In this document: positions 3,321 to 39,369 of the stretch, one piece after another
How positions within the stretch are numbered: the first letter of the stretch is position 1
How the letters are laid out: every line of letters starts with the position of its first letter
Assembly: GCA_027026255.1 (NCBI GenBank)
Contig: JALVOT010000004.1
Coordinates: forward strand, 39,061-103,060
Source of the DNA: a candidate division WOR-3 bacterium
GTDB taxonomy: Bacteria; Hydrothermota; Tepidihabitantia; SM23-42
Length of the DNA stretch: 64,000 nucleotides
Direction of reading: 5' to 3'
Position numbers and translations under genes: made by a program
The notes under the pieces: generated by a model
Database searches by the model: none
What the model saw: only the letters and a program-made list of their open reading frames with translations
What the model was told of the DNA's origin: nothing

Positions 3321-5546
3321 TTACCGCAGTCCCTGGGCCTTAATTTCCGCAGGGATAAAATCTCTTAGTGCTTTCCGATTCAAAATCCTTTTGACATCGG
3401 CCCGGTTTTTGTGTATCAAACACTGTTCGAGAAATTCCTGAAGTCCATTTTCTAAACGATTTATAACCGCCTGCCTCATCTGCTCAGACCAGGGATCATA
3501 CATATGTTCAAATGGTCTGGCGCGAAATAGTTTGAATGCAGACATATATTTTTTGCAGACATAACACCATTCACCAGAATTCATTAATGCCTTTGCCTGG
3601 ACTAAGTTGAGTTCAAAATCCTTATAATCGGTGGTGAAATAAACCCCCTTATTTATCAATAGTTTATTGACCTGGTTATGGGATACTACAAAAAGATGGC
3701 TTGGCAGATGCATTCTTTTCTTGAGCCTTACCAGCAGATGCGAAAGCTGGCTTGAAGGATTTTTACTTTTAGGCCAAAAGTTTTTATAGAGCTGATCAAC
3801 GAAGATTGATTTCCCGGGTTCACCCACCCTGAGTGCAAGATGAATGAGAAATGCCTTTTCCTTGGGAGTCAATAAAACTCTAAAATATTTATGATTGCGA
3901 TAGATAATCATCTTCCCGAGAAATTTTATCTGATAGACCGGAATTTCACGCATAAAAATTGGTAGTCGCAATAACCTTTTGGAAACTCCGGGGTTCTGTT
4001 TCTTTGTAAGTATACCTGTAATAAGTTCTGGGAAAAAAACAATGACCCGTTCAAAAAATCCCATCAAACCTTTCTTCTTTGCATAATTCAAGGCTTTATT
4101 AAAATCTTTTATCTTTAATGATGTCTGGGCACTTCTAAGAAGAGATATTAAATATAATACAGGAAGTCTAATTGAACCAACATCCGTCTTTCCTAAAAGA
4201 GATTCAATCGTTGCCCGATGTTTCATCATATGATATTTTTTAAGAAAGACCAGACTCTCCTGCAGTAAAACTTGCGCTCTCTTTTCATTTCCCAATGCCT
4301 GCTCAATAACTGCCAAACAGAAATTTGCCATATAAATGTAATTACGGAATTGTATTTTTTTTGATTTTTCAAGACACTCTTTAAGATAGAAAACCGCTTT
4401 TTCCAAACTTCCCAGGCCCAGGTTAAGAAGCGCCTTAATCAAAAGATAAAGGGTATAATCCTCACTATCCGATGCTATATTTGACCTATTTTTAAGAAAA
4501 TTCTGTGCTTTTTTGTATTCACCGCCGAGAACCAAAACAAGCGCTATCCTCAAACAGAGGTCTATATCATAATCTTCCTTTTCAAGCTCTAATGCCTTAT
4601 TGTAATATTTTAATGCCTCTCCATAATCAGTAATAAATGTCATTAAATCACCAACCATTATGTATGTATTTGGATGTCTTAGAGAGGTAAGTAATCTTCT
4701 GCACTTTCTTGCACAGACAATTGCATTCTCCACATCCAGAAGTTCTGCACTGGCTGCCCCACTTAAAAATGTCAATGCCATATTTAACGCCGGCTCTCTT
4801 ATATTTTTCACCCGTTTCCTCAACAATCTATTTAACTGTAGCTCTTTTTTCGGCATACGCAGCCAGTGAAGAGCGAGAAGTTCAATAATACCTGCCCAAA
4901 CCGAAGAATATAAAAAGCCGCTTTTCTCAAACATCTTTCTCAAACGTCTTGCCTTCTGGTAAACAACCACTTTGAAAGTTTCCATAAACTCCGCATCAAG
5001 TTTATCCAATCTTCGCCGTAGAGACAGATAACGTTCGGGAATCTTCTTCAGAATATCTGAATATTCAATAGGAAAAGCAGGTAGTTTATTCAAAATTTCT
5101 GCAGCATTTTTCAGGGTTTTATGATCAGAGTTCTTTAAAAGAATAAATTTTACCTTTTCAATAATCTCTTTTGACTCCGGAGTTGAATTCGCCATCGGTG
5201 AAAAAATATTTTCTAAAGGATGATTAATCAAACCGTATCGTTTCCATATAGAATGAATCCCTTTTAATGAAATTTTTATATTTTGTTTTTTTAAAATTTC
5301 TTTTGTCTGCCTGAGGGTAAGCCAGGGTCTATTCTCTTTTAAAAACATAACCCTTTCTTCTATATCCACACCAAATCGATTCCAGGGTTTATGATATGAA
5401 TATTTTAAATTATTATATCTCTTCACGAATCGCCATAATGTCACATGGGATATATTAAATCTCTCAGCCGTCCTTCTTAAAGAACCATCTTCAGCATAAG
5501 CTGAAATCGCCTCCGTCTCTATTTCTGTATTCTCTTTTCGCCTCAT
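3321..5546 (-). CDS. Large multidomain transcriptional regulator: N-terminal HTH, central TPR-like repeats, then an OmpR-type winged helix and a BTAD-like domain
   Basis: 741 aa. N-terminus RRTAERFNISHVTLWRFVKRY is an HTH of the transposase/IS630-like type. The middle has TPR-like repeats (e.g. EALKYYNKALELEKEDYDIDLCL). Residues about 560-640, LTPKEKAFLIHLALRVGEPGKSIFVDQLYKNFWPKSKNPSSQLSHLLVRLKKRM, fit the OmpR/PhoB trans_reg_C pattern. A BTAD-like helical segment follows. The gene is divergent from the duplicated phosphatase genes. Confidence 0.6.
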   Translation of the reverse strand: MRRKENTEIETEAISAYAEDGSLRRTAERFNISHVTLWRFVKRYNNLKYSYHKPWNRFGVDIEERVMFLKENRPWLTLRQTKEILKKQNIKISLKGIHSIWKRYGLINHPLENIFSPMANSTPESKEIIEKVKFILLKNSDHKTLKNAAEILNKLPAFPIEYSDILKKIPERYLSLRRRLDKLDAEFMETFKVVVYQKARRLRKMFEKSGFLYSSVWAGIIELLALHWLRMPKKELQLNRLLRKRVKNIREPALNMALTFLSGAASAELLDVENAIVCARKCRRLLTSLRHPNTYIMVGDLMTFITDYGEALKYYNKALELEKEDYDIDLCLRIALVLVLGGEYKKAQNFLKNRSNIASDSEDYTLYLLIKALLNLGLGSLEKAVFYLKECLEKSKKIQFRNYIYMANFCLAVIEQALGNEKRAQVLLQESLVFLKKYHMMKHRATIESLLGKTDVGSIRLPVLYLISLLRSAQTSLKIKDFNKALNYAKKKGLMGFFERVIVFFPELITGILTKKQNPGVSKRLLRLPIFMREIPVYQIKFLGKMIIYRNHKYFRVLLTPKEKAFLIHLALRVGEPGKSIFVDQLYKNFWPKSKNPSSQLSHLLVRLKKRMHLPSHLFVVSHNQVNKLLINKGVYFTTDYKDFELNLVQAKALMNSGEWCYVCKKYMSAFKLFRARPFEHMYDPWSEQMRQAVINRLENGLQEFLEQCLIHKNRADVKRILNRKALRDFIPAEIKAQGLR

Positions 5547-5560
5547 AAGAGATTATAACC

Positions 5561-5580
5561 ATTGTCAAAACATTGTCAAG
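5561..5580. promoter_or_regulatory. Direct repeat ATTGTCAA-N3-ATTGTCAA in the divergent regulator/phosphatase control region (candidate operator)
   Basis: ATTGTCAAAACATTGTCAAG sits 15 nt upstream of the regulator start codon (minus strand). The repeat half-sites are 11 bp apart centre to centre. The same sequence is preserved in the duplicated control region at 8641-8660. Confidence 0.3.
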
Positions 5581-5849
5581 CATTTGTTTCAATTCGTGGA
5601 AAAAATTGAATATAAATTGATGGATAATGCGACACCATTTAAATATTGCCGCAACTATATGAAAAATAAAGGAAAAATTTTGACTGCACCGCCTCAACTT
5701 AACATCGTTTCAACTAATATTATTTTACAATTGATACCAATCCCTGACCAGATTGGTAAAGAAACAGCGTATGGGTGGGTAAAGCAGGACGGTGAATTTT
5801 TTAATGATGTGAAACAAACTAAATCCTTTAAAAGAAAGTGAGGTGAAAA

Positions 5850-8228
5850 ATGAAAAAAGGATTAATACAAGTATGGCTCCTGGGGTTTATATTAACAGGG
5901 TGTCTATATGGGGCTATTAACACCGGACCCTACCTGACTCCAGGGGATAATCCCAAGACCTCTGTCTGGGTTAACTGGAATACCACCAACGCAGCCCAGA
6001 GCAGAGTTGCTTATGGAACCAGTTCTTCTGCACTAAACGACACTGCAAGCAGTTCAGGAACAACTGAATTCCATCATGTATTACTGGATAATCTCAATCC
6101 AGGAACAGTATACTACTACAAAGTTCTCCCCAGTGGCGATGTCAAACATTTCCGAACTTTTCCCAATAGTGCTGACAGCTTCAACTTCATTGCTTTTGGC
6201 GATACCCGTGATGGTGATAATCCCCACCAGCAGATAATGAATCGAATGTGGGATTATGATTTTGTGCTTGTTACCCATTCTGGAGATTTAGTAGGTAGGG
6301 GCAATAGGTGGTCGGATTGGACCACATTCTTTGATATCGAAGATACTGTAATCAGCTATAAGCAGTTTTTACCAGCGGTGGGTAATCATGAATACCCCTA
6401 CACACAATTTGACAGTCTTTTCAAACTCCCTGAGGGAAATAATAACAACTACTATTCATTAGATTATGGAAACGCCCATTTTGTAGTCCTTAATACTCAG
6501 AGCGATATCTCGGCTGAGAGTACCTGGCTTGTAAACGACCTTCAGGCAGCAAATAACAATCCGAATATTGTCTGGAAATTTGCAAATTTTCACCGTCCAC
6601 CTTATTCGTCAGGTCCACACGGAAGTGCTTCGGATATAAGAGCAAAATGGTGTCCGGTATTAGAAGAATATGGAGTGGATATTGTTTTTAATGGTCATGA
6701 CCACGACTATGAGCGAAGTATTGATATCAATGGAACAGTCTATATTGTAACCGGTGGTGGTGGTGCACCCCTTTATAATCCGGACTCAAACTGGTGGACA
6801 GCACATGTAGAAGGCACTTATCATTTTTGTTTGATTGAAATAAGAGACGATGATCTGCTTTTGAAAGCAATCAAACGGGACGGCACTGTATTCGACACTC
6901 TGAGATTGCATAAAGCGGCACATGAACCCTGGATTACAATCACCAATACTGATATTAATGATCCATCTCCTGGTGGAAATGGCAATAACCAATTAGAACC
7001 AGGGGAAACAGCCAACCTTCTAATAACCCTGAAAAACCAGGGTGGTGTCCAAGCAACAAATACTAATGGGCTATTACGCACCAGTGATCCTTATATCACA
7101 ATAAATGATTCAACTACAACGTTCGGTAATATAGCACCTGATTCCCAGAAAACAAATAACGCGGATCCATTTAACATTACAGCATCAGATTCAACCCCAA
7201 CGGGTCATACAGTTCAATTTGAACTTATTGTTACTGCTAATGATTATAATGATACCCTTAACTTTGATATTATGGTCGGCACCAAAGATTATTATGTCTG
7301 GAACCCTGACCCTACTCCATCACCAGGACAGCAAATTGATTCAATCCTGACTGCCCTGGGATATTCTGGTGATTACGGCACATCTCTGGCATCAGATTTA
7401 ACCAAATACAAATCTGTCTTTGTATGCGTTGGAGTATACAGCAACAGTTACATGATAAGAGAGAACAGTCCTGAAGCATCAGCCCTTGCAGATTATCTCC
7501 AGAATCAGCACGGCAGGATGTATTTAGAGGGTGCTGATGTCTGGTACTGGGACCCAAACCATGGTGGTTATAATTTTAATCCGTTATTTGCCATTAATCC
7601 GACTGACGAAGGTACTAACGATATGGGTCCGGTGGTTGGCCAGTCTGGGAGATTTACTGCGGGAATGAACTTCAACTATAATGGTGAGAATAATTATATG
7701 GATCATATCTCACCTACGGGTAATGGATTTTTAATCTTTGTTGACGGTGATAATAATTATGATTGTGGTGTTGCGCATGATGCAGGGGATTATAGGACGG
7801 TTGGGACTTCATTTGAGTTAGGTGGTCTGGTGGATGGGTCTCCACCTTCAACCCGTGCTGCGCTGTTGGATTCGATAATGCATTTCTTTGGAATCTCTAT
7901 CAATCCAGGGGTTAAAGAGCAAAAAGACCTTTCAATGAAACCAGCAAAAACCCAGCTGACCCAACTCTATCCCAACCCGACAAACAGCAAAACTACGATT
8001 AAATTCCAGATTAACCATAATACTCCATTATCATTAAAAATCTATGATGCCATGGGTCGTCTGGTGCGAACGATAATAGACTCTCCCGACTGTAAACCAG
8101 GTTACTACACAGTCAAATGGGAAGGCAATGATAATAGAGGTAGAAAGGTATCAAACGGTATCTACTTCTTATCTTTCCAGACTGATACTCACAAAACACT
8201 ACGTAAGGTAATAGTCATAAAAAGGTAA
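5850..8228 (+). CDS. Secreted calcineurin-like metallophosphatase (purple acid phosphatase family) with a T9SS C-terminal sorting domain
   Basis: 792 aa. Signal peptide MKKGLIQVWLLGFILTGC. PAP N-terminal FN3-like domain (VAYGTSSSAL...GTVYYYKV). Metallophosphatase motifs GDTRDGDN, GNHE, GHDHDYER. The C-terminal roughly 80 aa (LYPNPTNSKTTIKF...NGIYFLSF...KVIVIKR) match the Por/T9SS C-terminal-domain pattern. Confidence 0.8.
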   Translation: MKKGLIQVWLLGFILTGCLYGAINTGPYLTPGDNPKTSVWVNWNTTNAAQSRVAYGTSSSALNDTASSSGTTEFHHVLLDNLNPGTVYYYKVLPSGDVKHFRTFPNSADSFNFIAFGDTRDGDNPHQQIMNRMWDYDFVLVTHSGDLVGRGNRWSDWTTFFDIEDTVISYKQFLPAVGNHEYPYTQFDSLFKLPEGNNNNYYSLDYGNAHFVVLNTQSDISAESTWLVNDLQAANNNPNIVWKFANFHRPPYSSGPHGSASDIRAKWCPVLEEYGVDIVFNGHDHDYERSIDINGTVYIVTGGGGAPLYNPDSNWWTAHVEGTYHFCLIEIRDDDLLLKAIKRDGTVFDTLRLHKAAHEPWITITNTDINDPSPGGNGNNQLEPGETANLLITLKNQGGVQATNTNGLLRTSDPYITINDSTTTFGNIAPDSQKTNNADPFNITASDSTPTGHTVQFELIVTANDYNDTLNFDIMVGTKDYYVWNPDPTPSPGQQIDSILTALGYSGDYGTSLASDLTKYKSVFVCVGVYSNSYMIRENSPEASALADYLQNQHGRMYLEGADVWYWDPNHGGYNFNPLFAINPTDEGTNDMGPVVGQSGRFTAGMNFNYNGENNYMDHISPTGNGFLIFVDGDNNYDCGVAHDAGDYRTVGTSFELGGLVDGSPPSTRAALLDSIMHFFGISINPGVKEQKDLSMKPAKTQLTQLYPNPTNSKTTIKFQINHNTPLSLKIYDAMGRLVRTIIDSPDCKPGYYTVKWEGNDNRGRKVSNGIYFLSFQTDTHKTLRKVIVIKR

Positions 8229-8240
8229 CAGCCATTATTA

Positions 8241-8285
8241 CTTAATACAGTCTGCGGGGCATTTTGCCCTGCAGACTGTATTAAG
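8241..8285. terminator. Long near-perfect hairpin (about 21-bp stem) downstream of phosphatase gene 1
   Basis: CTTAATACAGTCTGCGGGGCA-TTT-TGCCCTGCAGACTGTATTAAG. There is no U-tract on the plus strand. It could be a terminator, an RNA-processing site or a protein-binding palindrome. Confidence 0.4.
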
Positions 8286-8482
8286 TGGAATCACTCTCAT
8301 TCTTCGTAACCACAAAAATAGTTTCCTATCCATCCGGCATTATGGTTCTGTCTTCAAAAGTAACAACTCCCTGACCTCCAAATGTTACCCTCATTATTTG
8401 ATTTTTAAGTGTATAGACATATACCTTACAGGGACGCTGCATTGCATATCTCTGTTCAATAATAATCCGAGTGATTTCGTCA

Positions 8483-8626
8483 CCTTTTAATGAAATTTTT
8501 ATCTTTTGTTTTTTAAAATTTCTTTTGTCTGCCTGAGAATAAGCCAGGGCCTATTCTCTTTTAAAAACATAACCCTTTCTTCTATATCCACACCAAATCG
8601 ATTCCAGGGTTTATGATATGAATATT
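8483..8626 (-). pseudogene. Relic fragment of the HTH-TPR regulator gene carried along in the tandem duplication (lacks start codon and first about 47 codons)
   Basis: Positions 8483-8626 are about 95% identical to 5260-5405, i.e. codons about 48-95 of the 3321..5546 regulator on the minus strand. The segment corresponding to 5406-5546, which includes the ATG, is deleted in this copy. Homology then resumes in the shared control region (8627 onward matches 5547 onward). Confidence 0.5.
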
Positions 8627-8640
8627 AAGAGATTATAACC

Positions 8641-8660
8641 ATTGTCAAAACATTGTCAAG
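8641..8660. promoter_or_regulatory. Second copy of the ATTGTCAA-N3-ATTGTCAA direct repeat, upstream of phosphatase paralog 2
   Basis: Identical 20-mer to 5561-5580, inside the duplicated control region. Confidence 0.3.
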
Positions 8661-8925
8661 CATTTGTTTCAATTCGTGGAAAAAATTGAATATAAATTGA
8701 TGGATAATGCAACACCATCTAAATATTGCCGCAACTATATGAAAAATAAAGGAAAAATTTTGACTGCATCACCTCAGCTTAACATTATTTTAACTATTAA
8801 TTATATAATTAATACCAATTCTCGACCAGATTGGTAAAGAAACAGCGTATGGGTGGGTAAAGCAGGACGGTGAATTTTTTAATGATGTGAAACAAGTTAA
8901 ATCCTTTAAGAAAGTGAGGTGAAAA

Positions 8926-11502
8926 ATGAAAAAAGGATTAATACAAGTATGGCTCCTGGGGTTTATATTAACAGGGTATCTATATGGAGGTATTAACACC
9001 GGACCCTACCTGACTCCAGGAAGTAATCCCAGGACCTCTGTCTGGGTTAACTGGAATACCAATAACGCAGCCCAGAGCAGAGTCGCTTATGGAACCAGTT
9101 CTTCTGCACTAAACGACACTGCAAGCAGTTCAGGAACAACTGAATTTCATCATGTATTACTGGATAATCTCAATCCAGGAACAGTATACTACTACAAAGT
9201 TCTCCCCAGCGGCAATGTCAAATATTTCCGAACTTTTCCCAATAGTGCTGACAGCTTCAACTTCATTGCTTTTGGCGATACCCGTGATGGTGATAATCCC
9301 CACGAGCAGATAATGAATCGAATGTGGAGTTATGATTTTGTGCTTGTTACCCATTCTGGAGATTTGGTAGGTAGTGGCAGCAGCTGGTCAGATTGGACCA
9401 CATTCTTTAATATCGAAGATACTGTAATCAGCTATAAGCAGTTTTTACCAGCGGTGGGTAATCATGAATCCCCCTTTACACAATTTGACAGTCTTTTCAA
9501 ACTCCCTGAGGGGAGTAATAACAACTACTATTCATTAGATTATGGAAACGCCCATTTTGTAGTCCTCAATACTGAGATGAATTCGAGCGGTATCTCGGCT
9601 GAGAGTACCTGGCTTGTAAACGACCTTCAGGCAGCAAATAACAATTCGAATATTGTCTGGAAATTTGCAAATTTTCACCGTCCACCTTATTCATCAGGTC
9701 CACACGGAAGTGCTTCGGATATAAGAGCAAAATGGTGTCCGGTATTAGAAGAATATGGAGTGGATATTGTTTTTAATGGTCATGACCACCTCTATGAGCG
9801 AAGTATTGATATCAATGGAACAGTCTATATTGTAACCGGTGGTGGTGGTGCACCCCTTTATAATGGAGACTCAAGCTGGTGGACAGCATATTCAGAAGGC
9901 ACTTATCATTTTTGTTTGATTGAAATAAGAGATGATGATCTGCTTTTGAAAGCAATCAAACGGGACGGCACTGTATTTGACACCCTGAGATTGCATAAAC
10001 CAATACATGAACCCTGGATAAAGGCACTCAGCTATAATATTACTGATCCTCCACAAGGTGGAAATGGTAATGGTATATTAGAACCTGGTGAGACCGGGAA
10101 AATGGTGGTAAACATAAAAAATATTGGTGGTGCAGGTGCCTATAATACAACCGGGACCTTGGTATCCTATGATAACTATGTTACAGTGCAGAATACAACC
10201 TATAACTTTGGTGACCTGGCTCCGGGTGATACCACATCGAATTCAGGCAGTCCGTTTTCACTCGTGGTTCACGATTTAACCCCTCAGGGACATGGTGCAA
10301 AGATTGGGTTAGTGCTCCATGCGGATGGTAAAAATGATACCGTAGACTTTGATGATACACTATACTATACAATTACAATCGGCACTCCCCCAGACCCCAC
10401 AATCATCTTTGGAGACGACTTTGAATACAGTGGTGGAGTTGATAGTTTTCCACATTACTGGAATGCAACTGGAAACTGGGCGCGCTCAACCCAGAATTCC
10501 CATTCTTCAAGCCATTCTGCATATAGTGGTGCACCTCTTGATAATGCAACAACCTTAACCATGAAAAATGGAGTTGACCTGACCCCATTCAGTGACCCCC
10601 GACTCAGTTTCTGGCACCGTTATGATTTTGCTTCAGCAATGTTTATGGATGGCTGTGCAGTTCAGATCTCTACTAACGGCGGTTCTTCCTGGGGAGACCT
10701 CTGGACCTTTAACTGGAATAACGGTGAAACCATTCCCTGGACTGAATTTGCCCTGCCTCTTTCTTCCTATATCAGCAACAATGTCAAGGTTAGATTTATG
10801 ATTGACGCCAATACAATGTTCCAGGACCGTACTGATTGGTTCATCGATGATTTTATGTTATTTACTCCAACCGACAATGAGCCGCCTTATTTTACAAATA
10901 CTACGGTCTGGCCGGATACTAATTATACTGGCCCATTTCCTGTGCAGTCAAAGATTACCGATAAAAGTGGTGTCGACCAGGCAAAACTCTATTATCGGGT
11001 TAATTCAGGTTCCTGGCAGGAACTGACAATGTCAGCGGGGAGCAATAATATCTATTCAGCAAGCATTCCTGCCCAGTCCTCGGGTGATAAGATTGACTAT
11101 TATTTATGGGCCCGGGATAAGTGGCTTACTCCGAATGCGGGATGTGACCCGATTGGTGCACCGGATCGTGGATATTACTCATTCAATCTGAAGATCGGAA
11201 TCAATGAAGGTCAGGCGGGCAGAATTCAGTTTATGCCGATAATCACCAATCCTACGCGGGGTCCGGTAAAGATCAGATTCAGCATTCCGGAGAAGAATAA
11301 GGTCAATCTGGCAGTCTATGATGTAACCGGCAGAAAGGTGAAAACAATATTCAATAAAAAAATAGCCCCTGGTGAATATCAGATAACCTGGAATCGTCTT
11401 GATGAAAAACATAGGCAGATTTCTACAGGCATCTACTTCTTGAAGTTTTCTGTTCCCGATGCAAAGTATGAAAAGATAGAGAAGGTTGTTCTTTTGAAAT
11501 AG
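8926..11502 (+). CDS. Secreted calcineurin-like metallophosphatase paralog with a divergent MAM/galactose-binding-like middle region and a T9SS C-terminal sorting domain
   Basis: 858 aa. The first about 345 aa are near-identical to the 5850..8228 product and carry the same metallophosphatase motifs. It then diverges (..CAVQISTNGGSSWGDLW..). The C-terminus GPVKIRFSIPEKNKVNLAVYDVTGRKV...GIYFLKFS...KVVLLK is T9SS C-terminal-domain-like. Confidence 0.8.
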   Translation: MKKGLIQVWLLGFILTGYLYGGINTGPYLTPGSNPRTSVWVNWNTNNAAQSRVAYGTSSSALNDTASSSGTTEFHHVLLDNLNPGTVYYYKVLPSGNVKYFRTFPNSADSFNFIAFGDTRDGDNPHEQIMNRMWSYDFVLVTHSGDLVGSGSSWSDWTTFFNIEDTVISYKQFLPAVGNHESPFTQFDSLFKLPEGSNNNYYSLDYGNAHFVVLNTEMNSSGISAESTWLVNDLQAANNNSNIVWKFANFHRPPYSSGPHGSASDIRAKWCPVLEEYGVDIVFNGHDHLYERSIDINGTVYIVTGGGGAPLYNGDSSWWTAYSEGTYHFCLIEIRDDDLLLKAIKRDGTVFDTLRLHKPIHEPWIKALSYNITDPPQGGNGNGILEPGETGKMVVNIKNIGGAGAYNTTGTLVSYDNYVTVQNTTYNFGDLAPGDTTSNSGSPFSLVVHDLTPQGHGAKIGLVLHADGKNDTVDFDDTLYYTITIGTPPDPTIIFGDDFEYSGGVDSFPHYWNATGNWARSTQNSHSSSHSAYSGAPLDNATTLTMKNGVDLTPFSDPRLSFWHRYDFASAMFMDGCAVQISTNGGSSWGDLWTFNWNNGETIPWTEFALPLSSYISNNVKVRFMIDANTMFQDRTDWFIDDFMLFTPTDNEPPYFTNTTVWPDTNYTGPFPVQSKITDKSGVDQAKLYYRVNSGSWQELTMSAGSNNIYSASIPAQSSGDKIDYYLWARDKWLTPNAGCDPIGAPDRGYYSFNLKIGINEGQAGRIQFMPIITNPTRGPVKIRFSIPEKNKVNLAVYDVTGRKVKTIFNKKIAPGEYQITWNRLDEKHRQISTGIYFLKFSVPDAKYEKIEKVVLLK

Positions 11503-11535
11503 ACATCCTTACACAAAACTACTCTCCGTTCTAAA

Positions 11536-11570
11536 GGAGGGGGCAGGCATCTGCCTCCTCCTTTTTTATT
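11536..11570 (+). terminator. Rho-independent terminator after phosphatase paralog 2
   Basis: GGAGGGGGCAGGCATCTGCCTCCTCC hairpin followed by TTTTTTATT. Confidence 0.6.
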
Positions 11571-11630
11571 AACATCCCGGTTCCCCGGACACAGCCTTGA
11601 CTTATCCACCTTTATTAGTTATTATTTAGA

Positions 11631-12554
11631 ATGAAATTTGTCGGTCTTGATGTCGGAGGAACATTTATAAAATCGGCGCTGGTTATCAACGGCAGGGTTA
11701 AAAAATTTCAGGTTATTCCGAGTCTGGCAAGCAAGGGACCGGAATACTCAATCAATCAGATAATCAGAGCAATTGATGTTTTGGTTAAAGACACTCAGGG
11801 GATTGGGATTGGTATCGCCGGGATTACCGATGCCCGGGCGGGTGTGGTAAAGACATCACCAAATTTAAAGGGCTGGGATGATATCCCTCTGGCAGCAACC
11901 TTAAAACAAAGATTCAAAAAACCGGTGAAGATTATCAATGATGTAGATGCAATCTGCCTTGGTGAATGGTATTACGGGCGAGCCCGTGGATACAGGAATG
12001 TCTTCTTATTCACGGTTGGCACCGGGGTCGGTGGTGCAGTAATTTGTGAAGGAAAATTGGTTCTTGGTGCCAATGGTTTTGCTGGAGAGCTGGGCCATAC
12101 TGTCATAAATTTTAACGGACCGAAATGCTCCTGCGGAAATCACGGATGTCTGGAAAGATATGTTGGGGCGCGATATATTATACGCTACGCCAGAAGGTTA
12201 TTAAAAAAGCATCCCAGTCGATTGTCTCAGTATAAAAAACTTACTCCGGCAATCATCGCCCGGGAAGCAAAAAATGGTGATAGCGTAGCCAAGGATGTCT
12301 TCACCCGGGTCGGCTTCTATCTCGGGGTGGGGATAACAAATATTATCGCCCTGTTTGACCCGGAATTGATTATCATATCAGGTGGAATCTCAAGGGCAGG
12401 AAAGGTATTATTTGACCCGATAAGAAAGACGGTTCGACAAAAACTCCTGGGTGAGCAATACCGTAACTACAGGATTGTGGCTTCAGCCCTGGGTGATTAT
12501 GCCGGGATCATGGGTGCTGCTTTACTATTTAATAAAAGGATTTGCCCGGACTGA
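11631..12554 (+). CDS. ROK-family sugar kinase (glucokinase-like)
   Basis: 307 aa. N-terminal GLDVGGT ATPase motif and the ROK zinc motif CSCGNHGCLE. Confidence 0.75.
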   Translation: MKFVGLDVGGTFIKSALVINGRVKKFQVIPSLASKGPEYSINQIIRAIDVLVKDTQGIGIGIAGITDARAGVVKTSPNLKGWDDIPLAATLKQRFKKPVKIINDVDAICLGEWYYGRARGYRNVFLFTVGTGVGGAVICEGKLVLGANGFAGELGHTVINFNGPKCSCGNHGCLERYVGARYIIRYARRLLKKHPSRLSQYKKLTPAIIAREAKNGDSVAKDVFTRVGFYLGVGITNIIALFDPELIIISGGISRAGKVLFDPIRKTVRQKLLGEQYRNYRIVASALGDYAGIMGAALLFNKRICPD

Positions 12555-24038: not shown

Positions 24039-24926
24039 TTGAAAAATAAAACTTATTCTGTTTTTGACCTCCATTGTGATACACCAATAAATATTTACCA
24101 AAAAAAATTCGCTCATATTAAACCTGAATACTTATCTACGCAGCATTATCTTGGTGCGGTCTTCGCCCATTTTATCCATCCCGAAAGAAAATTTCCGTTT
24201 GTCGGTGCCGTCAAACTTTTATCGTCAACAATCCATTATATTGAAAAAAGTAAAAACCTCCGGGTGATAAGGTCGCCCGGTGAGATAGACAAGCACAAAA
24301 CCAATATCATTCTGGGAGTTGAAGGAGGGCATATCTTTGACAACACAATCAAGCAGATAGAGGTATTATATGATTTAGGGGTGAGGGTCTTCACGATTAC
24401 CTGGAACAATTCAAATAAACTTGCCGGTTCGGCGCTGGATAATGATAAAAAAGGGTTAACAAAAAAAGGGAGGTCTTTTGTCAAAAAAATGGGGGATCTT
24501 GGAATTGTTATTGATCTTTCCCATGCCTCAACAAGAACCGCCCTTGATGTCTGCGAAATAGCCGAAAATGGGGTAATCGCATCTCATTCCTGTGTGCGGG
24601 ATTTGAACCCATCATATTTGAGGAATATCGACGACCGCGCAATCAAGGCGGTTGCAGAATGCGGTGGTGTGGTGGGAATAAATTTTTCCCGATATCATCT
24701 GGGTAAACATTCAGTGTTTGAACATATCGATTATTTAGTTAACAAATTCGGTATTGATATTGCCGCCATCGGCAGCGATTTTGATGGGATTAATGATCCG
24801 GTGATACCGGACCCCTCAGGGATAGAACAACTTGCTGAAGCGCTTTCTGGAAACGGCTATAAAATATCGGATATTAAAAAGATTTTTTACGGTAATTTTT
24901 TAAGGGTCTTTTCGGAAATTAAATAA
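24039..24926 (+). CDS. Membrane dipeptidase (peptidase family M19)
   Basis: 295 aa. Starts at a TTG codon. VFDLHCDTP zinc-binding motif and M19 pattern throughout. Confidence 0.8.
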   Translation: MKNKTYSVFDLHCDTPINIYQKKFAHIKPEYLSTQHYLGAVFAHFIHPERKFPFVGAVKLLSSTIHYIEKSKNLRVIRSPGEIDKHKTNIILGVEGGHIFDNTIKQIEVLYDLGVRVFTITWNNSNKLAGSALDNDKKGLTKKGRSFVKKMGDLGIVIDLSHASTRTALDVCEIAENGVIASHSCVRDLNPSYLRNIDDRAIKAVAECGGVVGINFSRYHLGKHSVFEHIDYLVNKFGIDIAAIGSDFDGINDPVIPDPSGIEQLAEALSGNGYKISDIKKIFYGNFLRVFSEIK

Positions 24927-24929
24927 AAA

Positions 24930-25002
24930 TGGAGGTGAGCGGATTCGAACCGCTGACCTGTGCGTTGCAAACGCACTGCTCTCCCAACTGAGCTACACCC
25001 CC
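24930..25002 (-). tRNA. tRNA-Ala (anticodon TGC)
   Basis: Reverse complement reads GGGGGTGTAGCTCAGTTGGGAGAGC...TTGCAA anticodon loop...GGTTCGAATCC. It has the G3:U70 Ala identity pair. No CCA is encoded. Confidence 0.85.
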
Positions 25003-25028
25003 AAAATTTTTATCCCAAACAGGTATCT

Positions 25029-25910
25029 TTAAAACCGACCGAAATCTAAGTCGATTCCAGCCCCACTGATAAATGTAAGGTCCTTATTAAAAAACCTGTC
25101 TTGATTTAACTTAAAATCGATATGGAATTCCCGAATTCTAAATCCGATACCTGCTTCAATATGCCATTGCGGTGTTTCAAAGCTGTTAACGAAATTTTCA
25201 TTAAACCCAAGGAGTAAAACAAATCTGCGGTTCAGGGGTAAATCCAGACCCGCATAGAAATGGGTGGAATCATTTTCGATGTCGCCCCGACAAAAATCAT
25301 ATTCATAGGCGATAAAGACAAATCCTTCATTAAGAATAAAGCGCTGAAGCATCAAACCAATCTGATGGTGCTGATAATCAAAGGGCGCTTTATAATAGTG
25401 TAATCTGTAGCGCGGAATAACTGTATAATCATCCATCTGTTTGAAGAAGCGGAGATTGAGATTATACCACTCATCATCAGCCTGCCCATTAATCAAAAAT
25501 GAAAGATCAAACCCCCGATTGAAGAATCGTCGGCCGATACTGAATCCATATTGAAGATGGTCTTTAACCGGAACAAATAAAGCCCCGAATCTGAACCTGA
25601 AGAATCTGACACCATAACCGATTGTAAATTCATTATTACCCCTATCAGGTTTCTGCCAGATGCCCAGACATCCATAGCGCGGCACCGGAGCGATTGTAAT
25701 TCCAAAGGCACTGGTGGAGCCGGTTATATCACCATAGAGTTGATTCTGGTATATGGGCAGCTGTTCAGGATAGAGCGCGGTATTGACAATATCATCAATA
25801 TAATCTCCGACAGCAAGGACCTCCATTCGGGTATTATTCGCCCATAATAGCGAGATGCCTATAAACCCGATAATTAGAGTTATCTTTTTCATAGTCTGAT
25901 TATATTCCAC
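25029..25910 (-). CDS. Hypothetical secreted protein, probably an outer-membrane beta-barrel
   Basis: 293 aa. Signal peptide MKKITLIIGFIGISLLWA. Alternating amphipathic pattern, Gly/aromatic-rich, C-terminal Phe. Confidence 0.45.
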   Translation of the reverse strand: MEYNQTMKKITLIIGFIGISLLWANNTRMEVLAVGDYIDDIVNTALYPEQLPIYQNQLYGDITGSTSAFGITIAPVPRYGCLGIWQKPDRGNNEFTIGYGVRFFRFRFGALFVPVKDHLQYGFSIGRRFFNRGFDLSFLINGQADDEWYNLNLRFFKQMDDYTVIPRYRLHYYKAPFDYQHHQIGLMLQRFILNEGFVFIAYEYDFCRGDIENDSTHFYAGLDLPLNRRFVLLLGFNENFVNSFETPQWHIEAGIGFRIREFHIDFKLNQDRFFNKDLTFISGAGIDLDFGRF

Positions 25911-27696: not shown

Positions 27697-28199
27697 TTTA
27701 TCACCTCCGCCAGGGAATCTTTTAACGATATTTTTAATTGTTTAAAACCATGTTTTTCAGGATTCGGACAGAAAATAATCGTATCATTACCACTAATTTC
27801 GATTTTATATGCCAATCCACTAACCGGACAAACAAATGTATCACCGGGTGATTCACCTTTTTTTAACAATTCTTTAATTTCCTCGAGATTCGCCATACAA
27901 AGCACCGCATCTTTATCCACAGTCGGTTCCTTAAATGTCTCTTCTTTAAAAATAAATAATCTTGAAAGAATAAATAAATTGTATGCAATAATACCAATAC
28001 ATACAGCAAGTATTAACCATTTAAAGATTGAAGGAAAACGGTGCTTCCTGGATTTTGCCGGGGTGACAGTGGCATCAGGCGCTTTTTCCATTTTTTCTTC
28101 TGCCATTTCTATCTGACACCTGGAACAGTAATCTCCGGAATGTTCTTCGTCAAATAACTGGCCACATCTGAGACATCTTTTTTTTGTATTTTCACTCAT
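27693..28199 (-). CDS. Zinc-ribbon single-pass membrane protein (hypothetical, operon partner of the ATPase)
   Basis: 168 aa. N-terminal CLRCG...CSRCQ zinc ribbon, one TM helix (FKWLILAVCIGIIAYNLFIL), and an extracytoplasmic domain with CPVSG...FCPNPEKHG. It overlaps the ATPase gene by 8 nt. Confidence 0.45.
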   Translation of the reverse strand: MSENTKKRCLRCGQLFDEEHSGDYCSRCQIEMAEEKMEKAPDATVTPAKSRKHRFPSIFKWLILAVCIGIIAYNLFILSRLFIFKEETFKEPTVDKDAVLCMANLEEIKELLKKGESPGDTFVCPVSGLAYKIEISGNDTIIFCPNPEKHGFKQLKISLKDSLAEVIK

Positions 28200-30759
28200 T
28201 ATTACCTCCCTTCCCGAGTAATCTGGATATCTTTAAAAGTAGTAATTGCTTTTTTATCGGCTTTTTGATATAGTCTACAGCGCCAAGTTCTAATCCCTTA
28301 ATCTCATCTTCTGCCTCGGTTCTTGCCGTTAAAAATACAACCGGAACATCTATACCTTTTTGCTTAATAATCTCTAAGAGTTTAAACCCATCAAGATTCG
28401 GCATATTGACATCCGATATAACCAGGTCGAATTTTTTACTGCCAATTTGCATAAGGGCATCAACTCCATCCTCAACATAGGTGATATCATAGTTATTCTT
28501 CTTTAATATCTGCTTCAACAATAGTCCAATCTCCGGGTCATCATCAACGATAAGGATTGAGGGAGCCGTTGTTTTTTCTTCTTTTGCAGCCTTTTTTGAT
28601 TCTTCTTTTTTTAATGAAACAGACTTCATATCTTCAGCCAGAACAGCCTTGTAAACATCTTCCGGACTGAATATCAGGTTTTGCACCTTCTCAACCGCAT
28701 GATTACTGATTAAATAGTGTCCTTTTTTTCGAATTAATTCTCTTATTTCCGCAATGGGTGTGCCCTGTCGAACCATTTCGGTAATTTCGTAGTCGAATTT
28801 CAAGATTTCATAAATTCCTTCACGTCCTTTATAACCGCTATTATTACAGCGTGGACAACCCACGGGTTTTGCAACCTTTGTAATTTCTTTATCAACAAAT
28901 GGCCGCAGTATCTTCAAATCATAGTCCGAAGGTTCGGTTATCTTTTTGCAGAAGGGACAGAGTTTTTTTACCAGACGTTGGGCGATGATACAAATAAGTG
29001 CTTCCGCCATTACCTCCCGCGTAATACCGAGTCTTTCAAGACGGAATATTGCGGTCGTTGTATTTGAAGTATGGAGAGTAGAAATTGTTAGGTGACCGGT
29101 GCTTGAAAAATTCATAGCCATTTTTGCCGAATATTGGTCCCTGATTTCACCGAGGAAAATTATATCCGGGTCCTGACGCACAACAGATTTTAACAACGCC
29201 TCAAATGTTACTCCCGCCTTTTCATTTACCTGTTGTTGATTGGCAAACGGGATGCGGTATTCTACAGGGTCTTCAATTGAAACAAGACTGCGTGATCTGC
29301 AATCAACCTGGGAAAGAAGACTGTAAATCGTAGTAGTTTTACCGGAACCGGTTGGTCCGACGATAAGAATTAAGCCATGGCTGCGGTTAATAATATCAAG
29401 TAAGATTTCCACCTGTTCGGATGTCATCCCGAGTTCTCCAAGAGATTTTGGCTTTGCATGGGGTTCCAACAATCTGATAATAAGACTCTCCCCTTCCGGA
29501 GTGGATGTCGTCGCAAGTCGCAGTTTGAATATCCTTTTGTTAATAACCGCCTCCAATGTGCCGTCTTGAGGTCGTCTCTTTTCTGTAATATCCATATCGG
29601 CTAAAACCTTTAATCTATTTATCAACATCAAACCTGTTCTCTTTTTTAAAGTAAACATTTCGTGCATATCACCATCGACACGGAATCGCACAACCGTTTC
29701 ATTTTTTTTGGGCTCGATGTGAATATCACTTGCCCTTTCGGAAACAGCGGTAATCAAAATATTATTGGCGATATGCATTACTGGATATTTCGTGATGTCA
29801 GCCGTACTTAAGTCAGTTTTAATTGTTTTTGTCGCTTCAATACCGCTTGTTTTATCCGGGTCGCTACGGACGGCCACTTCTGCAATCTCCTCCGCGGTTT
29901 CATCAGACATACCTGACCTGAGAAAAGCATCAATAACCTCAGGACTTGTGATTTTTAAACAGGGTCTGTTTTCAGCACTGCTCCCTAATCTGGTTAAAAG
30001 ATCCACCAATTCAACATCGAAAGGATTACAAATAATATAACAGATTTTGTCTTTCTCATCTATCACCGGAAGAACATAATTCGCCCGGCAGAAGGCAGGA
30101 GGCAAAACATCCAATTCTATTAAATTATGGTCTATATAACTTATAAAGGGAAGATGCGTGAAATCAGCAAGATATTGAGCTAATTGTTTAGTCGTAATAT
30201 CAATTTTCTTACAGATGGAATAAATATTATGGATTGAAGCCTTTCCCACCAGATACTGCTGATTATCATCAAGCTTCAACTGATTAATAAGAAATTTCTT
30301 AAATTTAACAAAATCCGGAATTTCTGATTTAATCTCCCTGCTCGGCTTGCGCTCTTCTATTTTCTGCCACCGGCTTTTTGTTTTTATATAGGAATCAATT
30401 TTTTTAATCAGCTCTTCCCGATTTATTGGTTTAATCAGATAATCGACACCCCCGGAAGAAAAAATCCTTTCCCTGTTCTGTTCCTGGTCAAATGCCGTTA
30501 TAAAAATTACCGGGATGTAAGCGAAATGCTGGTCTGCCTGTAATTTTCTACATACCTCATAACCATTCATACCGGGCATTGATACATCGAGGAGTATTAA
30601 ATCCGGTTTACTGTTTTTTAGAATTGTGAATGTTTCCAGACCATCTGCAGCAGAAATTACATCATAACCATTTTTCCTTAAAATATGTTCAATTAAATTT
30701 CGCGTATCCGGGTCATCATCAACAACCATTATTAGAGGCGGTGAATTATTCATATACAA
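28192..30759 (-). CDS. GspE/PilB-family type II secretion / type IV pilus ATPase flanked by N-terminal and C-terminal response-regulator receiver domains (REC-GspE_N-ATPase-REC)
   Basis: 855 aa. N-terminal REC is VVDDDPD...LILLDVSMPGMNG...VIFITA...YLIKP, with all conserved Asp/Thr/Lys positions present. The middle has a GSPII_E N-terminal-like domain and the ATPase core: Walker A GPTGSGKTTT, Asp/His boxes, and the tetracysteine CPFCK...CPRC. C-terminal REC is ILIVDDDPE...DLVISDVNMPNLDG...VVFLTA...YIKKP. Confidence 0.8.
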   Translation of the reverse strand: MYMNNSPPLIMVVDDDPDTRNLIEHILRKNGYDVISAADGLETFTILKNSKPDLILLDVSMPGMNGYEVCRKLQADQHFAYIPVIFITAFDQEQNRERIFSSGGVDYLIKPINREELIKKIDSYIKTKSRWQKIEERKPSREIKSEIPDFVKFKKFLINQLKLDDNQQYLVGKASIHNIYSICKKIDITTKQLAQYLADFTHLPFISYIDHNLIELDVLPPAFCRANYVLPVIDEKDKICYIICNPFDVELVDLLTRLGSSAENRPCLKITSPEVIDAFLRSGMSDETAEEIAEVAVRSDPDKTSGIEATKTIKTDLSTADITKYPVMHIANNILITAVSERASDIHIEPKKNETVVRFRVDGDMHEMFTLKKRTGLMLINRLKVLADMDITEKRRPQDGTLEAVINKRIFKLRLATTSTPEGESLIIRLLEPHAKPKSLGELGMTSEQVEILLDIINRSHGLILIVGPTGSGKTTTIYSLLSQVDCRSRSLVSIEDPVEYRIPFANQQQVNEKAGVTFEALLKSVVRQDPDIIFLGEIRDQYSAKMAMNFSSTGHLTISTLHTSNTTTAIFRLERLGITREVMAEALICIIAQRLVKKLCPFCKKITEPSDYDLKILRPFVDKEITKVAKPVGCPRCNNSGYKGREGIYEILKFDYEITEMVRQGTPIAEIRELIRKKGHYLISNHAVEKVQNLIFSPEDVYKAVLAEDMKSVSLKKEESKKAAKEEKTTAPSILIVDDDPEIGLLLKQILKKNNYDITYVEDGVDALMQIGSKKFDLVISDVNMPNLDGFKLLEIIKQKGIDVPVVFLTARTEAEDEIKGLELGAVDYIKKPIKKQLLLLKISRLLGKGGNNE

Positions 30760-31063
30760 TCTGCAGCCTATCCAAATAATTTTTCAGTTCTTCAAGCATA
30801 CTTATAATCTGCTCAGCATTTCTATCTTTGGCAGCAAGTTCAATGGTTTTTCCTATTTCAGTGATTTTTTCAAATCCGTATCCCCCTCCAGAACCTTTCA
30901 TACCATGTCCGAGTCGTTCAATTATAACATATTCACCATTTTGAAGCGCCGAACGTATAGTCTCTATATCTGTATATCTCTTTTCAATATAACCAGGAAT
31001 TAATTCTTTCAGGTCGGCATCGATGTGAACAACAATTTTTTCTTCATCTGCCATTCTTATCAC
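30746..31063 (-). CDS. Stand-alone histidine phosphotransfer (Hpt) domain protein
   Basis: 105 aa. LGHGMKGSGGGYGF matches the HxxKG...G phosphohistidine helix signature of Hpt domains. It overlaps the kinase gene upstream by 20 nt and the ATPase gene downstream by 14 nt. Confidence 0.7.
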   Translation of the reverse strand: MIRMADEEKIVVHIDADLKELIPGYIEKRYTDIETIRSALQNGEYVIIERLGHGMKGSGGGYGFEKITEIGKTIELAAKDRNAEQIISMLEELKNYLDRLQIVYE

Positions 31064-35669: not shown

Positions 35670-37124
35670 TTGTCAACCCTGTATTTCAGTTCCAGGGATG
35701 GAATTCGCATTATTGACATTCAAAAAGAATTCTGTATAATTATGACGATGGAGGAAAAAACCCTGAAAAAGGGGGTAAAATCTGAATCCTTCCTGACGCC
35801 TGAGCAGATAGTTGCCCATCTTGATCGCTATATCATCGGACAGACTGAGGCAAAAAAGGCAGTGGCAATTGCATTACGGAACCGCTGGCGCAGGCAGCAG
35901 GTTAAGGGAAGGATAAAAGAAGAAATTTACCCCAACAATATCATTCTTATTGGTCCCACTGGAGTTGGAAAGACCGAGATCGCCCGACGTCTGGCAAGGA
36001 TTGCCCATGCCCCATTTATTAAGGTTGAAGCCTCGCGTTTTACTGAAGTCGGATATGTGGGCAGGGATGTTGAATCGATGGTGCGCGACCTTGTCGAGAT
36101 ATCAGTCAATATGGTGCGTCAGGAAAAAACCCTGCTCGTAGCAGAAAAGGCAAAACAGTATGCCGAAGAGCGAATCCTGGATATACTGCTTCCGCCAGCA
36201 CCCCAATCAATCGGGGGGTCTAAAATAACGGAGACCACAGAGACCAATAAAACAACCAAAGAGAAAATGCGTAATTTACTCCATCAGGGCAAACTCGACA
36301 ATCGCATTGTGGAATTAGAGGTCGCCCGCCAATCTATGCCCTTCATCGAAATATTCAGCCAGACCGGGATTGAAGAGTTAAGCGTTGCCTTAGAAGAGGC
36401 ATTTGGGGGAAGATTTCCCAAACGAAAAAAGAAACGGAAGATGCCGGTTAAAGAGGCATTAAGGTATCTGCAGAATGAAGAGGCGGAAAAACTGATTGAT
36501 ATGGATGAGGTGATAAATGAGGCGCGTAAACGTGCCGCATTATCCGGCATAATATTTATTGATGAAATTGACAAAATTGCCGGCACCGGAGCAACGAGTG
36601 GACCTGATGTCTCAAGGGAAGGTGTCCAGAGGGACCTTTTACCCATTGTTGAAGGGTCAAATGTTATGACCAAATACGGTATGATAAAAACAAATCATAT
36701 TCTTTTTATTGCCGCCGGTGCCTTTCATAACAAAAAACCCTCGGATTTAATCCCGGAATTACAGGGCCGATTTCCCATTCGGGTTGAGCTCTTTTCTTTA
36801 AGTAAAGAAGATTTTAAAAGAATCCTGGTTGAGCCGGAAAACTCATTAATAAAACAGTATATCGCACTACTGGAAACCGAGGGCGTAAAACTTGAATTTA
36901 CCAGGGATGCGATTACCAAGATTGCTGAGATTGCAGCCCGGGTGAATGAATCAACCGAGAATATCGGAGCACGTCGACTCCATACAGTAATGACGAAACT
37001 CTTAGAAGAACTTCTATATAGTGCACCCAGTATTACCAGAAAAATCAAGATTACAAGTCGGTATGTAAATCAAAAATTGGCTGATATCGTTAAAGATGTT
37101 GATGTTTCCCGTTATATCCTGTAA
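35670..37124 (+). CDS. hslU: ATP-dependent protease ATPase subunit HslU
   Basis: 484 aa. [34 protein letters not shown], Walker [16 protein letters not shown], and [11 protein letters not shown]. The real start is probably the internal Met at about 35742. No hslV is adjacent. Confidence 0.85.
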
Positions 37125-37145
37125 AACATTTTTTGATGATAACCT

Positions 37146-37559: not shown

Positions 37560-37568
37560 GGAGGTCTA

Positions 37569-39283: not shown

Positions 39284-39369
39284 AGCAGAAAAAATTTCTC
39301 TTTTCAACCCGAAAATTAGAAGACAGACTTGAACTGCATTATAAAAATCTTAAAGCCAAAGAACTGGAT

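Follow-up and report, generated by a model that had tools for sequence, protein, structure and literature searches.

We analyzed a 64,000-nucleotide (nt) stretch of DNA from a candidate division WOR-3 bacterium (assembly GCA_027026255.1, contig JALVOT010000004.1, forward-strand positions 39,061 to 103,060; hereafter the window, numbered from its first letter), in which two genes for purple acid phosphatase (PAP)-like proteins share a repeated 5' half. From left to right, the locus contains a full-length regulator gene on the minus strand (3321-5546), a control region (5547-5849), phosphatase gene 1 on the plus strand (5850-8228), a spacer, a minus-strand relic of the regulator gene (8482-8626), a second control region (8627-8925) and phosphatase gene 2 on the plus strand (8926-11502). 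The best protein matches of the window genes are WOR-3 proteins. We find that a block of at least 1.68 kb, spanning the 5' end of the regulator gene, the control region and the phosphatase head, has recently been copied, such that two secreted-type phosphatases now carry the same head on different C-terminal modules.

An original prediction, made from the letters alone, had placed a repeat at 5260 to about 6960 and at 8483 to 10020, and self-BLASTN, which it had named as a check, confirmed this repeat. Together with find_repeats and MAFFT, which agreed with it, this analysis showed that the two copies are real and that their similarity is far beyond chance. The alignment of 5546-7009 with 8626-10094 was 92.9% identical over 1476 nt, and that of 5260-5404 (minus strand, the left arm of copy 1, encoding the second helix-turn-helix [HTH] unit of the regulator) with 8483-8626 was 96.6% identical over 145 nt. 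Identity along the copies ran at ~95-96% until ~6935 in copy 1 and ~10020 in copy 2 and at ~55% thereafter (49-60 identical positions per 60-column bin until column ~1740, then 29-41), so that 5546 to ~6935 and 8626 to ~10020 are about 95% identical and copy 1 ends some way short of the predicted 6960. The copies are in direct, head-to-tail orientation with a spacing of ~3.08-3.22 kb, and self-BLASTN found neither a third repeat copy nor another copy of either C-terminal module in the window.

Each copy holds regulator codons ~48-95, an intergenic region of 303 nt (copy 1) or 299 nt (copy 2), matching the predicted control region of roughly 300 bp, and 1083 or 1092 nt of the phosphatase gene. 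The regulator portion had been described as the 3' 140 bp of a regulator fragment; what the repeat holds is part of the 5' end of a 741-amino-acid gene. The single deletion predicted in the second copy was found as well: copy 2 lacks 142 nt (5405-5546 of copy 1), flanked by AT microhomology, and has thereby lost the start codon and codons 1-47 of the regulator gene; codons ~48-95 are kept. Further differences in copy 2 are an insertion of 9 nt at ~9585 and several indels of 1-2 nt. In all, ~70 substitutions and five indels, distributed over the whole length, separate the copies, and the flanks are unique on both sides.

Both phosphatase genes are complete open reading frames (ORFs), of 792 amino acids (gene 1) and 858 amino acids (gene 2), and they have the domains and ligand motifs of the two intact PAP-like genes with type IX secretion system (T9SS) signals that had been predicted. 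The PAP-like head occupies 5850 to ~6920 in gene 1 and 8926 to ~10005 in gene 2. Both genes matched Pur_ac_phosph_N (PF16656; 51 bits, cut-off 30) and Metallophos (PF00149; 48-50 bits, cut-off 21.5) in Pfam, and both heads matched plant purple acid phosphatase structures (E ~1e-11 to 1e-14). The metal-ligand motifs FGDTR, SGDLV, VGNHE, FHRPPY and NGHDH are present in both proteins and invariant among 16 aligned WOR-3 homologues. Judged from the motif, motif II reads GDLVG in both copies, without the chromophoric tyrosine of GDxxY, and all 16 homologues share this lack (GDLV..G throughout the clade); because the tyrosine is absent, we call the heads PAP-like and not demonstrably purple.

A hydrophobic N-terminus is visible in the sequence, and the C-terminal tails of both proteins are of the Por_Secre_tail/FlgD_ig type in Pfam. 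Por_Secre_tail scored 42 bits in gene 1 (cut-off 27) and 25.6 bits, under the cut-off, in gene 2, the tail of which is homologous to that of gene 1 (E 9e-15) and to the C-terminal domains (CTDs) of relatives. No component of the T9SS machinery was found among the large ORFs scanned within the window. At codon 18 (5901-5903 versus 8977-8979), the signal peptide of gene 1 has a lipobox-like LTGC with Cys18, where gene 2 has Tyr; on this reading of the signal peptides, only one of the two phosphatases may be a lipoprotein.

Downstream of the heads, C-module 1 (6921-8228) comprises a CARDB-like domain (6921-7270), an unassigned middle region and a T9SS CTD (~7965-8216), and C-module 2 (10006-11502) a CARDB-like domain, a jelly-roll-like middle and a T9SS CTD (~11248-11466). 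The prediction of different C-terminal modules on shared heads was thus borne out. Its further statement that the genes diverge completely beyond the repeat holds for the middle ~200-270 residues, which are unrelated, but not for the whole: protein identity is 94% as far as residue ~357, 48% in the CARDB-like domain (the ~115 residues that follow) and 29% in the CTD. Protein alignment showed the sharp step that had been expected at about residue 345, and placed it instead at residue ~357, in a conserved inter-domain linker, with homology continuing beyond. The step in nucleotide identity (~95% to ~55%) and in synonymous divergence (dS, substitutions per synonymous site; 0.08 to 1.6) lies at the HEPWI codons (6920-6934) of this linker, which opens the C-terminal module, and the right-hand repeat junction can be placed at 6913-6935 in copy 1 and 9998-10020 in copy 2. 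The middle of gene 2 had been labeled a MAM/galactose-binding-like module, a label neither confirmed nor refuted here: its AlphaFold2 model was unusable (predicted local distance difference test score, pLDDT, 47), Pfam gave only sub-threshold Reelin_subrepeat-B and CBM_56 matches, and a homology search with the module returned four short fragments only.

In a Nei-Gojobori comparison of gene 1 with gene 2, the 361 codons of the head had a dS of 0.082 and a nonsynonymous divergence (dN) of 0.039 (dN/dS 0.47), and the next 112 codons, in the CARDB-like domain, had a saturated dS of 1.64 and a dN of 0.54 (dN/dS 0.33). Non-synonymous changes in the head were fewer than the neutral expectation (P = 0.013); purifying selection acts on both PAP genes, which are intact. 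Judged by these substitution rates, a head dS of 0.08 against a saturated dS just past the boundary, the copying event is recent.

The regulator (741 amino acids, 3321-5546) matched N-terminal HTH families (HTH_psq/HTH_23) and tetratricopeptide repeats (TPR) in Pfam; 14 members of its family also match HTH_28, HTH_Tnp_1, HTH_32 and TPR_MalT, with weak BTAD matches in 9 of the 14. Its AlphaFold2 model (pLDDT 87) has three-helix HTH units at residues 2-49 and 60-103, which form a transposase-like pair (residues ~2-103), a long solenoid of TPRs and, at the C-terminus, a winged helix with a helical domain (residues ~537-740; strands 537-555, helices 561-612, wing 619-639, then helices). Foldseek matched the middle of the model to MalT domain III and to TPR sensors of the NprR/Rap type, and the C-terminal unit to the Streptomyces antibiotic regulatory protein (SARP) domain of AfsR (8k60_J, 8hvr_I; template modeling score 0.55-0.56, E 4e-4 to 8e-4), consistent with a SARP-like winged HTH followed by BTAD. 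The modeled structure supports the identification of this gene as a regulator and is consistent with a SARP-type activator with a TPR sensor; the protein is not a canonical SARP because its domain order is reversed and it has an extra N-terminal HTH pair.

In a protein database this regulator family is small, with 15 matches, and a scan of genomes gave 75 loci; single WOR-3/Stahlbacteria metagenome-assembled genomes (MAGs) have as many as about ten copies. In a neighbor-joining tree, the window regulator groups with those of loci L001 and L020 (its closest relatives, 62% amino acid identity), L002/L006 and L007/L075.

The control region that had been predicted ahead of both phosphatase genes is indeed common to them (5547-5849 in copy 1; 8627-8925 in copy 2, by alignment to copy 1). 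On its minus strand, the regulator promoter in copy 1 matches the consensus at all 12 positions (TTGACA-16-TATAAT, 5552-5579), and its -10 element ends 5 nt before the ATG. Loci L001 and L020 have TTGACA-16-TATCAT followed by 6 nt and the ATG, and 59 of 70 regulator-family loci have the architecture TTGACA-N16/17-TATAAT-GTTTCCGCA-ATG (in its fuller form, cTTGACAa-N16/17-TATAAT-GTTTCCGCA, then a few nt and the ATG). Because the -10 element lies so close to the ATG, and the same layout recurs in L001/L020 and in these 59 loci, the regulator mRNA is probably leaderless or nearly so. Promoters of the family have a conserved box directly after the -10 element; the window, L001 and L020 instead have this box (TTTTTCCACGAATTGAAAC) upstream of the -35 element. 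The regulator -35 region (5558-5585, minus strand) is itself an 11-nt tandem repeat (CTTGACAATGTT TTGACAATGG), which sets two TTGACA hexamers one helical turn apart; it occurs in both window copies and is absent from L001 and L020.

Both copies of the control region contain candidate operator-like boxes, GGAAAAAAT and GAAAAATAAAG, which in copy 1 lie at ~5586-5606 (TTTCAATTCGTGGAAAAAAT) and ~5659-5684 (TGAAAAATAAAGGAAAAATTTTGACT). In L001, L020, L002, L007 and L075, the orthologous intergenic regions have kept two boxes, CAATYCGYGGAAAAAT and GAAAAATAAAG, at a spacing of 61-62 nt. Divergence between the copies was uneven: 1.6% over 5547-5670 (regulator promoter and box 1), 15% over 5671-5760 (13 substitutions, mainly GC to AT in copy 2) and 2.3% over 5761-5849. 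Box 2 spans the border of the first two segments and has no substitution inside. Substitutions in the first segment fall short of the number expected from the synonymous rate (P = 0.003), and the substitution cluster in the middle stands out from the rest of the repeat (P = 7e-5) and is weakly unusual against the synonymous rate (P = 0.017). This fast-diverging middle covers the candidate cargo promoter, which reads TTGACT-17-CATCGT in copy 1 and TTGACT-17-CATTAT in copy 2. Directly ahead of TTGACT, both copies have GAAAAAT twice, 11 nt apart, of which the first repeat alone is conserved in relatives; SARPs bind heptamers repeated directly every 11 nt beside the -35 element of the target. From the pattern of substitutions, we infer that the operator-bearing flanks have been constrained in both copies while the core promoters drifted apart. 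A single regulator would control both phosphatase genes. An Rfam scan of 5000-12000 gave sub-threshold chance matches only, and therefore no known riboswitch or leader in the control region.

The regulator promoter was duplicated intact in copy 2, where it again matches all 12 consensus positions (8659-8632) and, as an orphan, now reads into the regulator relic (8482-8626, minus strand). This relic is the dead remnant of the divergent regulator that had been predicted: regulator codons ~48-95 remain, with a 1-nt frameshift and in-frame stops, and the start codon and the whole first HTH unit are deleted.

Between gene 1 and copy 2 lies a 254-nt spacer made up of a hairpin and a minus-strand open stretch of 51 codons ending in a stop. 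The hairpin (8240-8286), a GC-rich palindrome detected as an inverted self-match, is a probable bidirectional terminator between gene 1 and the convergent open stretch; a terminator scan based on U-tracts did not flag it. In an exhaustive phmmer search, the 51-codon stretch matched residues 259-302 of a 307-amino-acid PF02567 protein (E 2e-5 over 1.8 billion sequences, 54-60% identity), and it is thus the 3' stump of a PhzF-family gene (8326-8481, minus strand; the last ~51 codons and the stop), cut where copy 2 of the repeat starts. No further phzF sequence was found in the window. The junction 8481|8482 joins the truncated phzF to regulator codon 95, so that two genes are cut at one point. 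A fusion of this kind involves at least one deletion or illegitimate join, and because a single junction truncates both genes, it points to a deletion between gene 1 with its convergent phzF on one side and a second regulator, its control region and gene 2 on the other. The repeat thus ends differently on its two sides: on the right, identity steps down within continuous homology, and on the left there is no flanking homology, copy 2 bordering on the phzF stump. The first left boundary may have been lost in a later deletion.

Beyond the 1-nt deletion of the relic, the reading frame of regulator codons 90-95 (KISLKG) continues into the phzF stump (DEITR...; 8482-8520, minus strand). The original junction may have encoded a fusion of an HTH unit to a PhzF tail before its inactivation, and the 142-nt deletion together with the frameshift may have disarmed a truncated HTH fragment.

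The junction also bears on whether the repeat is an artefact of assembly, with two strain variants stitched in tandem or a repeat expanded. The source is a 168-kb contig of a MAG, and exact-protein look-ups, which returned no record of gene 1, gene 2 or the closest PAP (P0008), gave no independent assembly of either gene. Collapse or expansion would leave the private features of copy 2 (its 142-nt deletion, frameshift and phzF junction) unexplained, and a chimera of strains would still need a real spacer-relic junction in one of them. Given the substitutions and private indels along the copies and the unique junctions at their flanks, we regard an artefact as very unlikely.

The origin of the C-terminal modules is indicated by the loci of related regulators. 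In L001, L020, L002/3, L007 and L075 alike, the partner opposite the regulator is an orthologous S8 subtilase, the heads of which are 66-68% identical to each other, and the C-terminal module of this subtilase is homologous to that of gene 2 (77% identity in L001, 72% in L020, 58% in L002/3, 55% in L007 and 46% in L075). The tails of M14, C25 and S8 peptidases in other WOR-3 genomes match C-module 1 at 50-69% identity, and the shared region begins at the CARDB-like domain in every case. The sister genome that contains L020 also has one such module, on an M14 gene (P0003); downstream of that gene there is no phzF and no synteny with the window. No remnant of an S8 or M14 head was found in the window.

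These findings weigh on the simplest history of the repeat, a recent tandem duplication of 5260-8481 in which the 3' half of the second copy was later replaced by C-module 2. Such a duplication would account for the direct head-to-tail layout, the spacing of ~3.08-3.22 kb and the presence of only one novel junction, 8481|8482. It would also have placed C-module 1, the hairpin and an intact phzF gene downstream of copy 2, where none of them is found, and C-module 2 accompanies the orthologous regulator in relatives. Because it adjoins that regulator there, we take C-module 2 to be native to the locus and not a later import, and we find plain tandem duplication a very doubtful account. A one-step unequal crossover between CARDB-like segments was considered and rejected: it predicts phzF and an M14 gene with C-module 1 to the left of the regulator, where there is an AIRS-domain gene instead.

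In relatives, the PAP-like head has its usual place elsewhere. Typical WOR-3 homologues of the head are proteins of 440-475 amino acids that consist of the head and a CTD only. We collected 80 PAP loci with an alignment-based scan of metagenomes (a scan with a single head sequence returned nothing), and in at least 15 of them the PAP gene lies downstream of a Peptidase_S13 gene and/or upstream of a Peptidase_M19 gene. The order S13, PAP, M19 and a gene of 288 amino acids is conserved in relatives, and the PAP gene in the S13/M19 loci inspected carries its own sigma-70-type promoter. In the window, the upstream block of this neighborhood (AAA, EIIA, a 418-amino-acid gene, YceD and S13; 35748-41192, with S13 at 39798-41192) is 50-77% identical in amino acids to the related loci and lies 15 kb from the downstream block (M19 and the 288-amino-acid gene; 24039-25910, with M19 at 24039-24926). 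No PAP gene is found at either edge of these split blocks. None of the 75 regulator loci has a PAP head within 10 kb of the regulator, and none of the 80 PAP loci has a regulator-family gene or either C-module nearby; because the pairing is absent from both sets, the placement of a PAP head beside the regulator is lineage-specific.

The same comparison bears on the possibility that the two genes are old PAP paralogues whose 5' halves have been homogenized by repeated gene conversion, with no recent transfer of the head. Concerted evolution of this kind would fit the abrupt drop in identity that occurs within continuous homology at the right end and the uneven divergence within the repeat (1.6% to 15% in the control region), and partly homogenized neighboring modules do exist in relatives. 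However, both C-modules bear peptidase heads in relatives, no regulator-family locus in the scan has an adjacent PAP, and the left end of the repeat lacks a homologous flank. The uneven divergence, moreover, is largely explained by constraint on the flanks, with the middle only weakly unusual against the synonymous rate, and dS is roughly uniform along the head (0.06-0.13). We therefore consider concerted evolution of old paralogues unlikely.

We think it probable that the locus arose by a recent copy or conversion of a block of regulator, control region and head onto a second cargo gene, followed by deletions. The ancestral locus would have consisted of the regulator divergent from an S8 subtilase gene ending in C-module 2. 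A PAP head (signal peptide, FN3-like domain and metallophosphatase core), ancestrally part of a protein of ~450 amino acids encoded between S13 and M19 genes, would have recombined onto peptidase-type C-modules, displacing the S8 head, and gene 2 would thus be the positional descendant of the regulator's ancestral subtilase partner. By module duplication or non-reciprocal conversion, the block of at least 1.68 kb would then have been placed ahead of a second peptidase-type gene, one that ended in C-module 1 and lay beside phzF, with the right joint in the conserved HEPWI linker, from which the CARDB-like domain begins in all such C-modules. A later deletion would have removed most of the redundant second regulator and most of the intervening phzF-like gene, producing the 8481|8482 junction, and the 142-nt deletion would have taken the start codon and first HTH unit of the relic. 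The outcome would be one regulator with two near-identical operator/promoter regions, serving two secreted phosphoesterases with only two differences, in the modules for surface anchoring or binding and in a core-promoter segment that has diverged. We infer the order of these events, particularly of the first steps. The original prediction of a tandem partial duplication, by recent duplication or gene conversion, holds as to its recency; the event was not a plain tandem one, as the 3' part is unrepeated and the left junction is a fusion of phzF to the regulator.

Several observations weigh against this history, in addition to the metagenomic origin of the contig. No genome was found with a regulator closer than ~62% identity, and no intermediate state was seen. 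The PAP heads of the window are only 51-59% identical to any other PAP, which makes their origin from the slot between S13 and M19 plausible but not proven, and a comparison of the PAP 5' untranslated region with the upstream regions of native PAP genes, made in search of the left edge of the imported segment, gave no homology. Outside the two boxes, the control region of the window aligns only patchily to those of L001 and L020.

The arrangement of the locus recurs, with other heads, across the regulator family. A divergent ORF of at least 150 amino acids lies 70-580 nt upstream of the regulator in 67 of 70 usable loci, and Por_Secre_tail was found in 35 of the 68 divergent ORFs scanned, many of the 68 being cut by contig ends. 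The large divergent partner is thus usually T9SS cargo, and the heads of these cargo ORFs are diverse, catalytic or of the beta-propeller kind (S8, C25, BNR, FG-GAP, Kelch and SBBP). Same-orientation arrays of cargo and regulator genes, regulator relics and partial repeats of 80-95% identity between neighboring modules are common in the loci of relatives. On this basis, we tentatively propose, as a possibility rather less likely than not, a "one sensor, one cargo" system in WOR-3/Stahlbacteria, in which up to about ten HTH-TPR-SARP-like paralogues per genome, with near-leaderless promoters, would each be divergent from a single T9SS cargo gene. The modules would be recombination-prone cassettes whose heads (S8, M14, C25, PAP) are exchanged at the conserved linker, and the window would capture such an exchange soon after it happened.

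Three groups of observations in relatives resemble parts of the window locus. In L020 (4155-9764, minus strand), the regulator faces an S8 gene and then an M14 carboxypeptidase gene, 80 nt apart, the C-modules of which are 67% identical in amino acids and 81% in nucleotides over 1 kb; this locus is the mirror image of the window, with different heads on like modules where the window has the same heads on different modules. In L014, L018, L030, L064 and L075, neighboring regulator paralogues are 81-86% identical over 230-340 nt at their 3' ends and far more diverged elsewhere, a pattern that suggests recurrent partial gene conversion within regulator arrays. Regulator fragments are also present in L008 (6309-6440), L018 (1635-1988), L036 (12666-12812), L054 (11533-11640) and L010 (419-1759 and 9367-9909), so that the window is not alone in showing redundant regulator copies in decay.

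Duplication, conversion and domain shuffling, as seen here, are ordinary processes, and partial gene conversion or segmental duplication between neighboring paralogues is a general mechanism. The window shares with partial gene conversion a non-reciprocal copy, a sharp identity step and one end in pre-existing homology at a conserved linker; it differs in that the left end lies outside homology, at a deletion junction truncating two genes, and in that the tract includes regulatory DNA and a gene fragment besides coding sequence. Among T9SS cargo, the Porphyromonas gingivalis genes rgpA, kgp and hagA reportedly share recombining adhesin modules. Like these gingipain and adhesin genes, those of the window combine a catalytic head with large C-terminal adhesin-type modules and a CTD, and near-identical blocks are found between paralogues (in P. 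gingivalis by intragenomic recombination). Unlike them, the block shared in the window consists of the head, the control region and part of a regulator gene, with C-modules that differ, and the host is an uncultured WOR-3 bacterium with a phosphoesterase head in place of peptidase heads.

The regulator resembles the Streptomyces SARPs (AfsR, ActII-ORF4/DnrI) in that its C-terminal part (~220 residues) can be superposed on the SARP domain of AfsR (winged HTH and BTAD), in having a TPR sensor region, as large SARPs do, and in that its gene adjoins the presumed target. It differs in that the SARP-like unit is C-terminal and not N-terminal, in its N-terminal pair of transposase-like HTH units and in the lack of an NB-ARC ATPase; the host is a WOR-3 bacterium, the presumed targets are secreted hydrolases and not antibiotic clusters, and DNA binding is predicted. 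The polysaccharide utilization loci of Bacteroidota have locus-specific sensors (hybrid two-component systems, SusR, and extracytoplasmic function sigma/anti-sigma factors). As with these sensors, there are many paralogous regulators per genome, each beside genes for secreted or surface hydrolases that it presumably controls; the WOR-3 regulators belong to an unrelated protein family (HTH-TPR-SARP-like, cytoplasmic, with no membrane sensor), and the partner is a single cargo gene, not a multi-gene locus. Our literature search found no paper joining WOR-3 with T9SS or T9SS cargo with domain shuffling, and the papers on SARPs concerned Streptomyces; the system of paired regulator and cargo modules appears to be undescribed.

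Three aspects of the locus are unusual: the copied block brings regulation along with the catalytic head, a phosphoesterase takes over peptidase modules, and multi-copy HTH-TPR-SARP-like regulators are paired one-to-one with T9SS cargo genes. The locus offers a dated (dS ~0.08) and anatomically clear case of the re-tooling of a secreted enzyme in an uncultured phylum, in which a head of the phosphate-scavenging type would have moved out of a conserved housekeeping context into secretion and anchoring modules of the peptidase type, come under a dedicated regulator and then been doubled. If the regulators do control their neighbors, they would give a handle on how WOR-3/Stahlbacteria choose their extracellular hydrolases, and the conserved operator-like boxes and promoters make this control testable without cultivation.

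Elsewhere in the window, a minus-strand region at 28192-33536 encodes a secretion ATPase of the PilB/T2SSE type with two N-terminal receiver domains and an MshEN domain, and adjoins a gene for a hybrid PAS histidine kinase with two receiver-domain matches.

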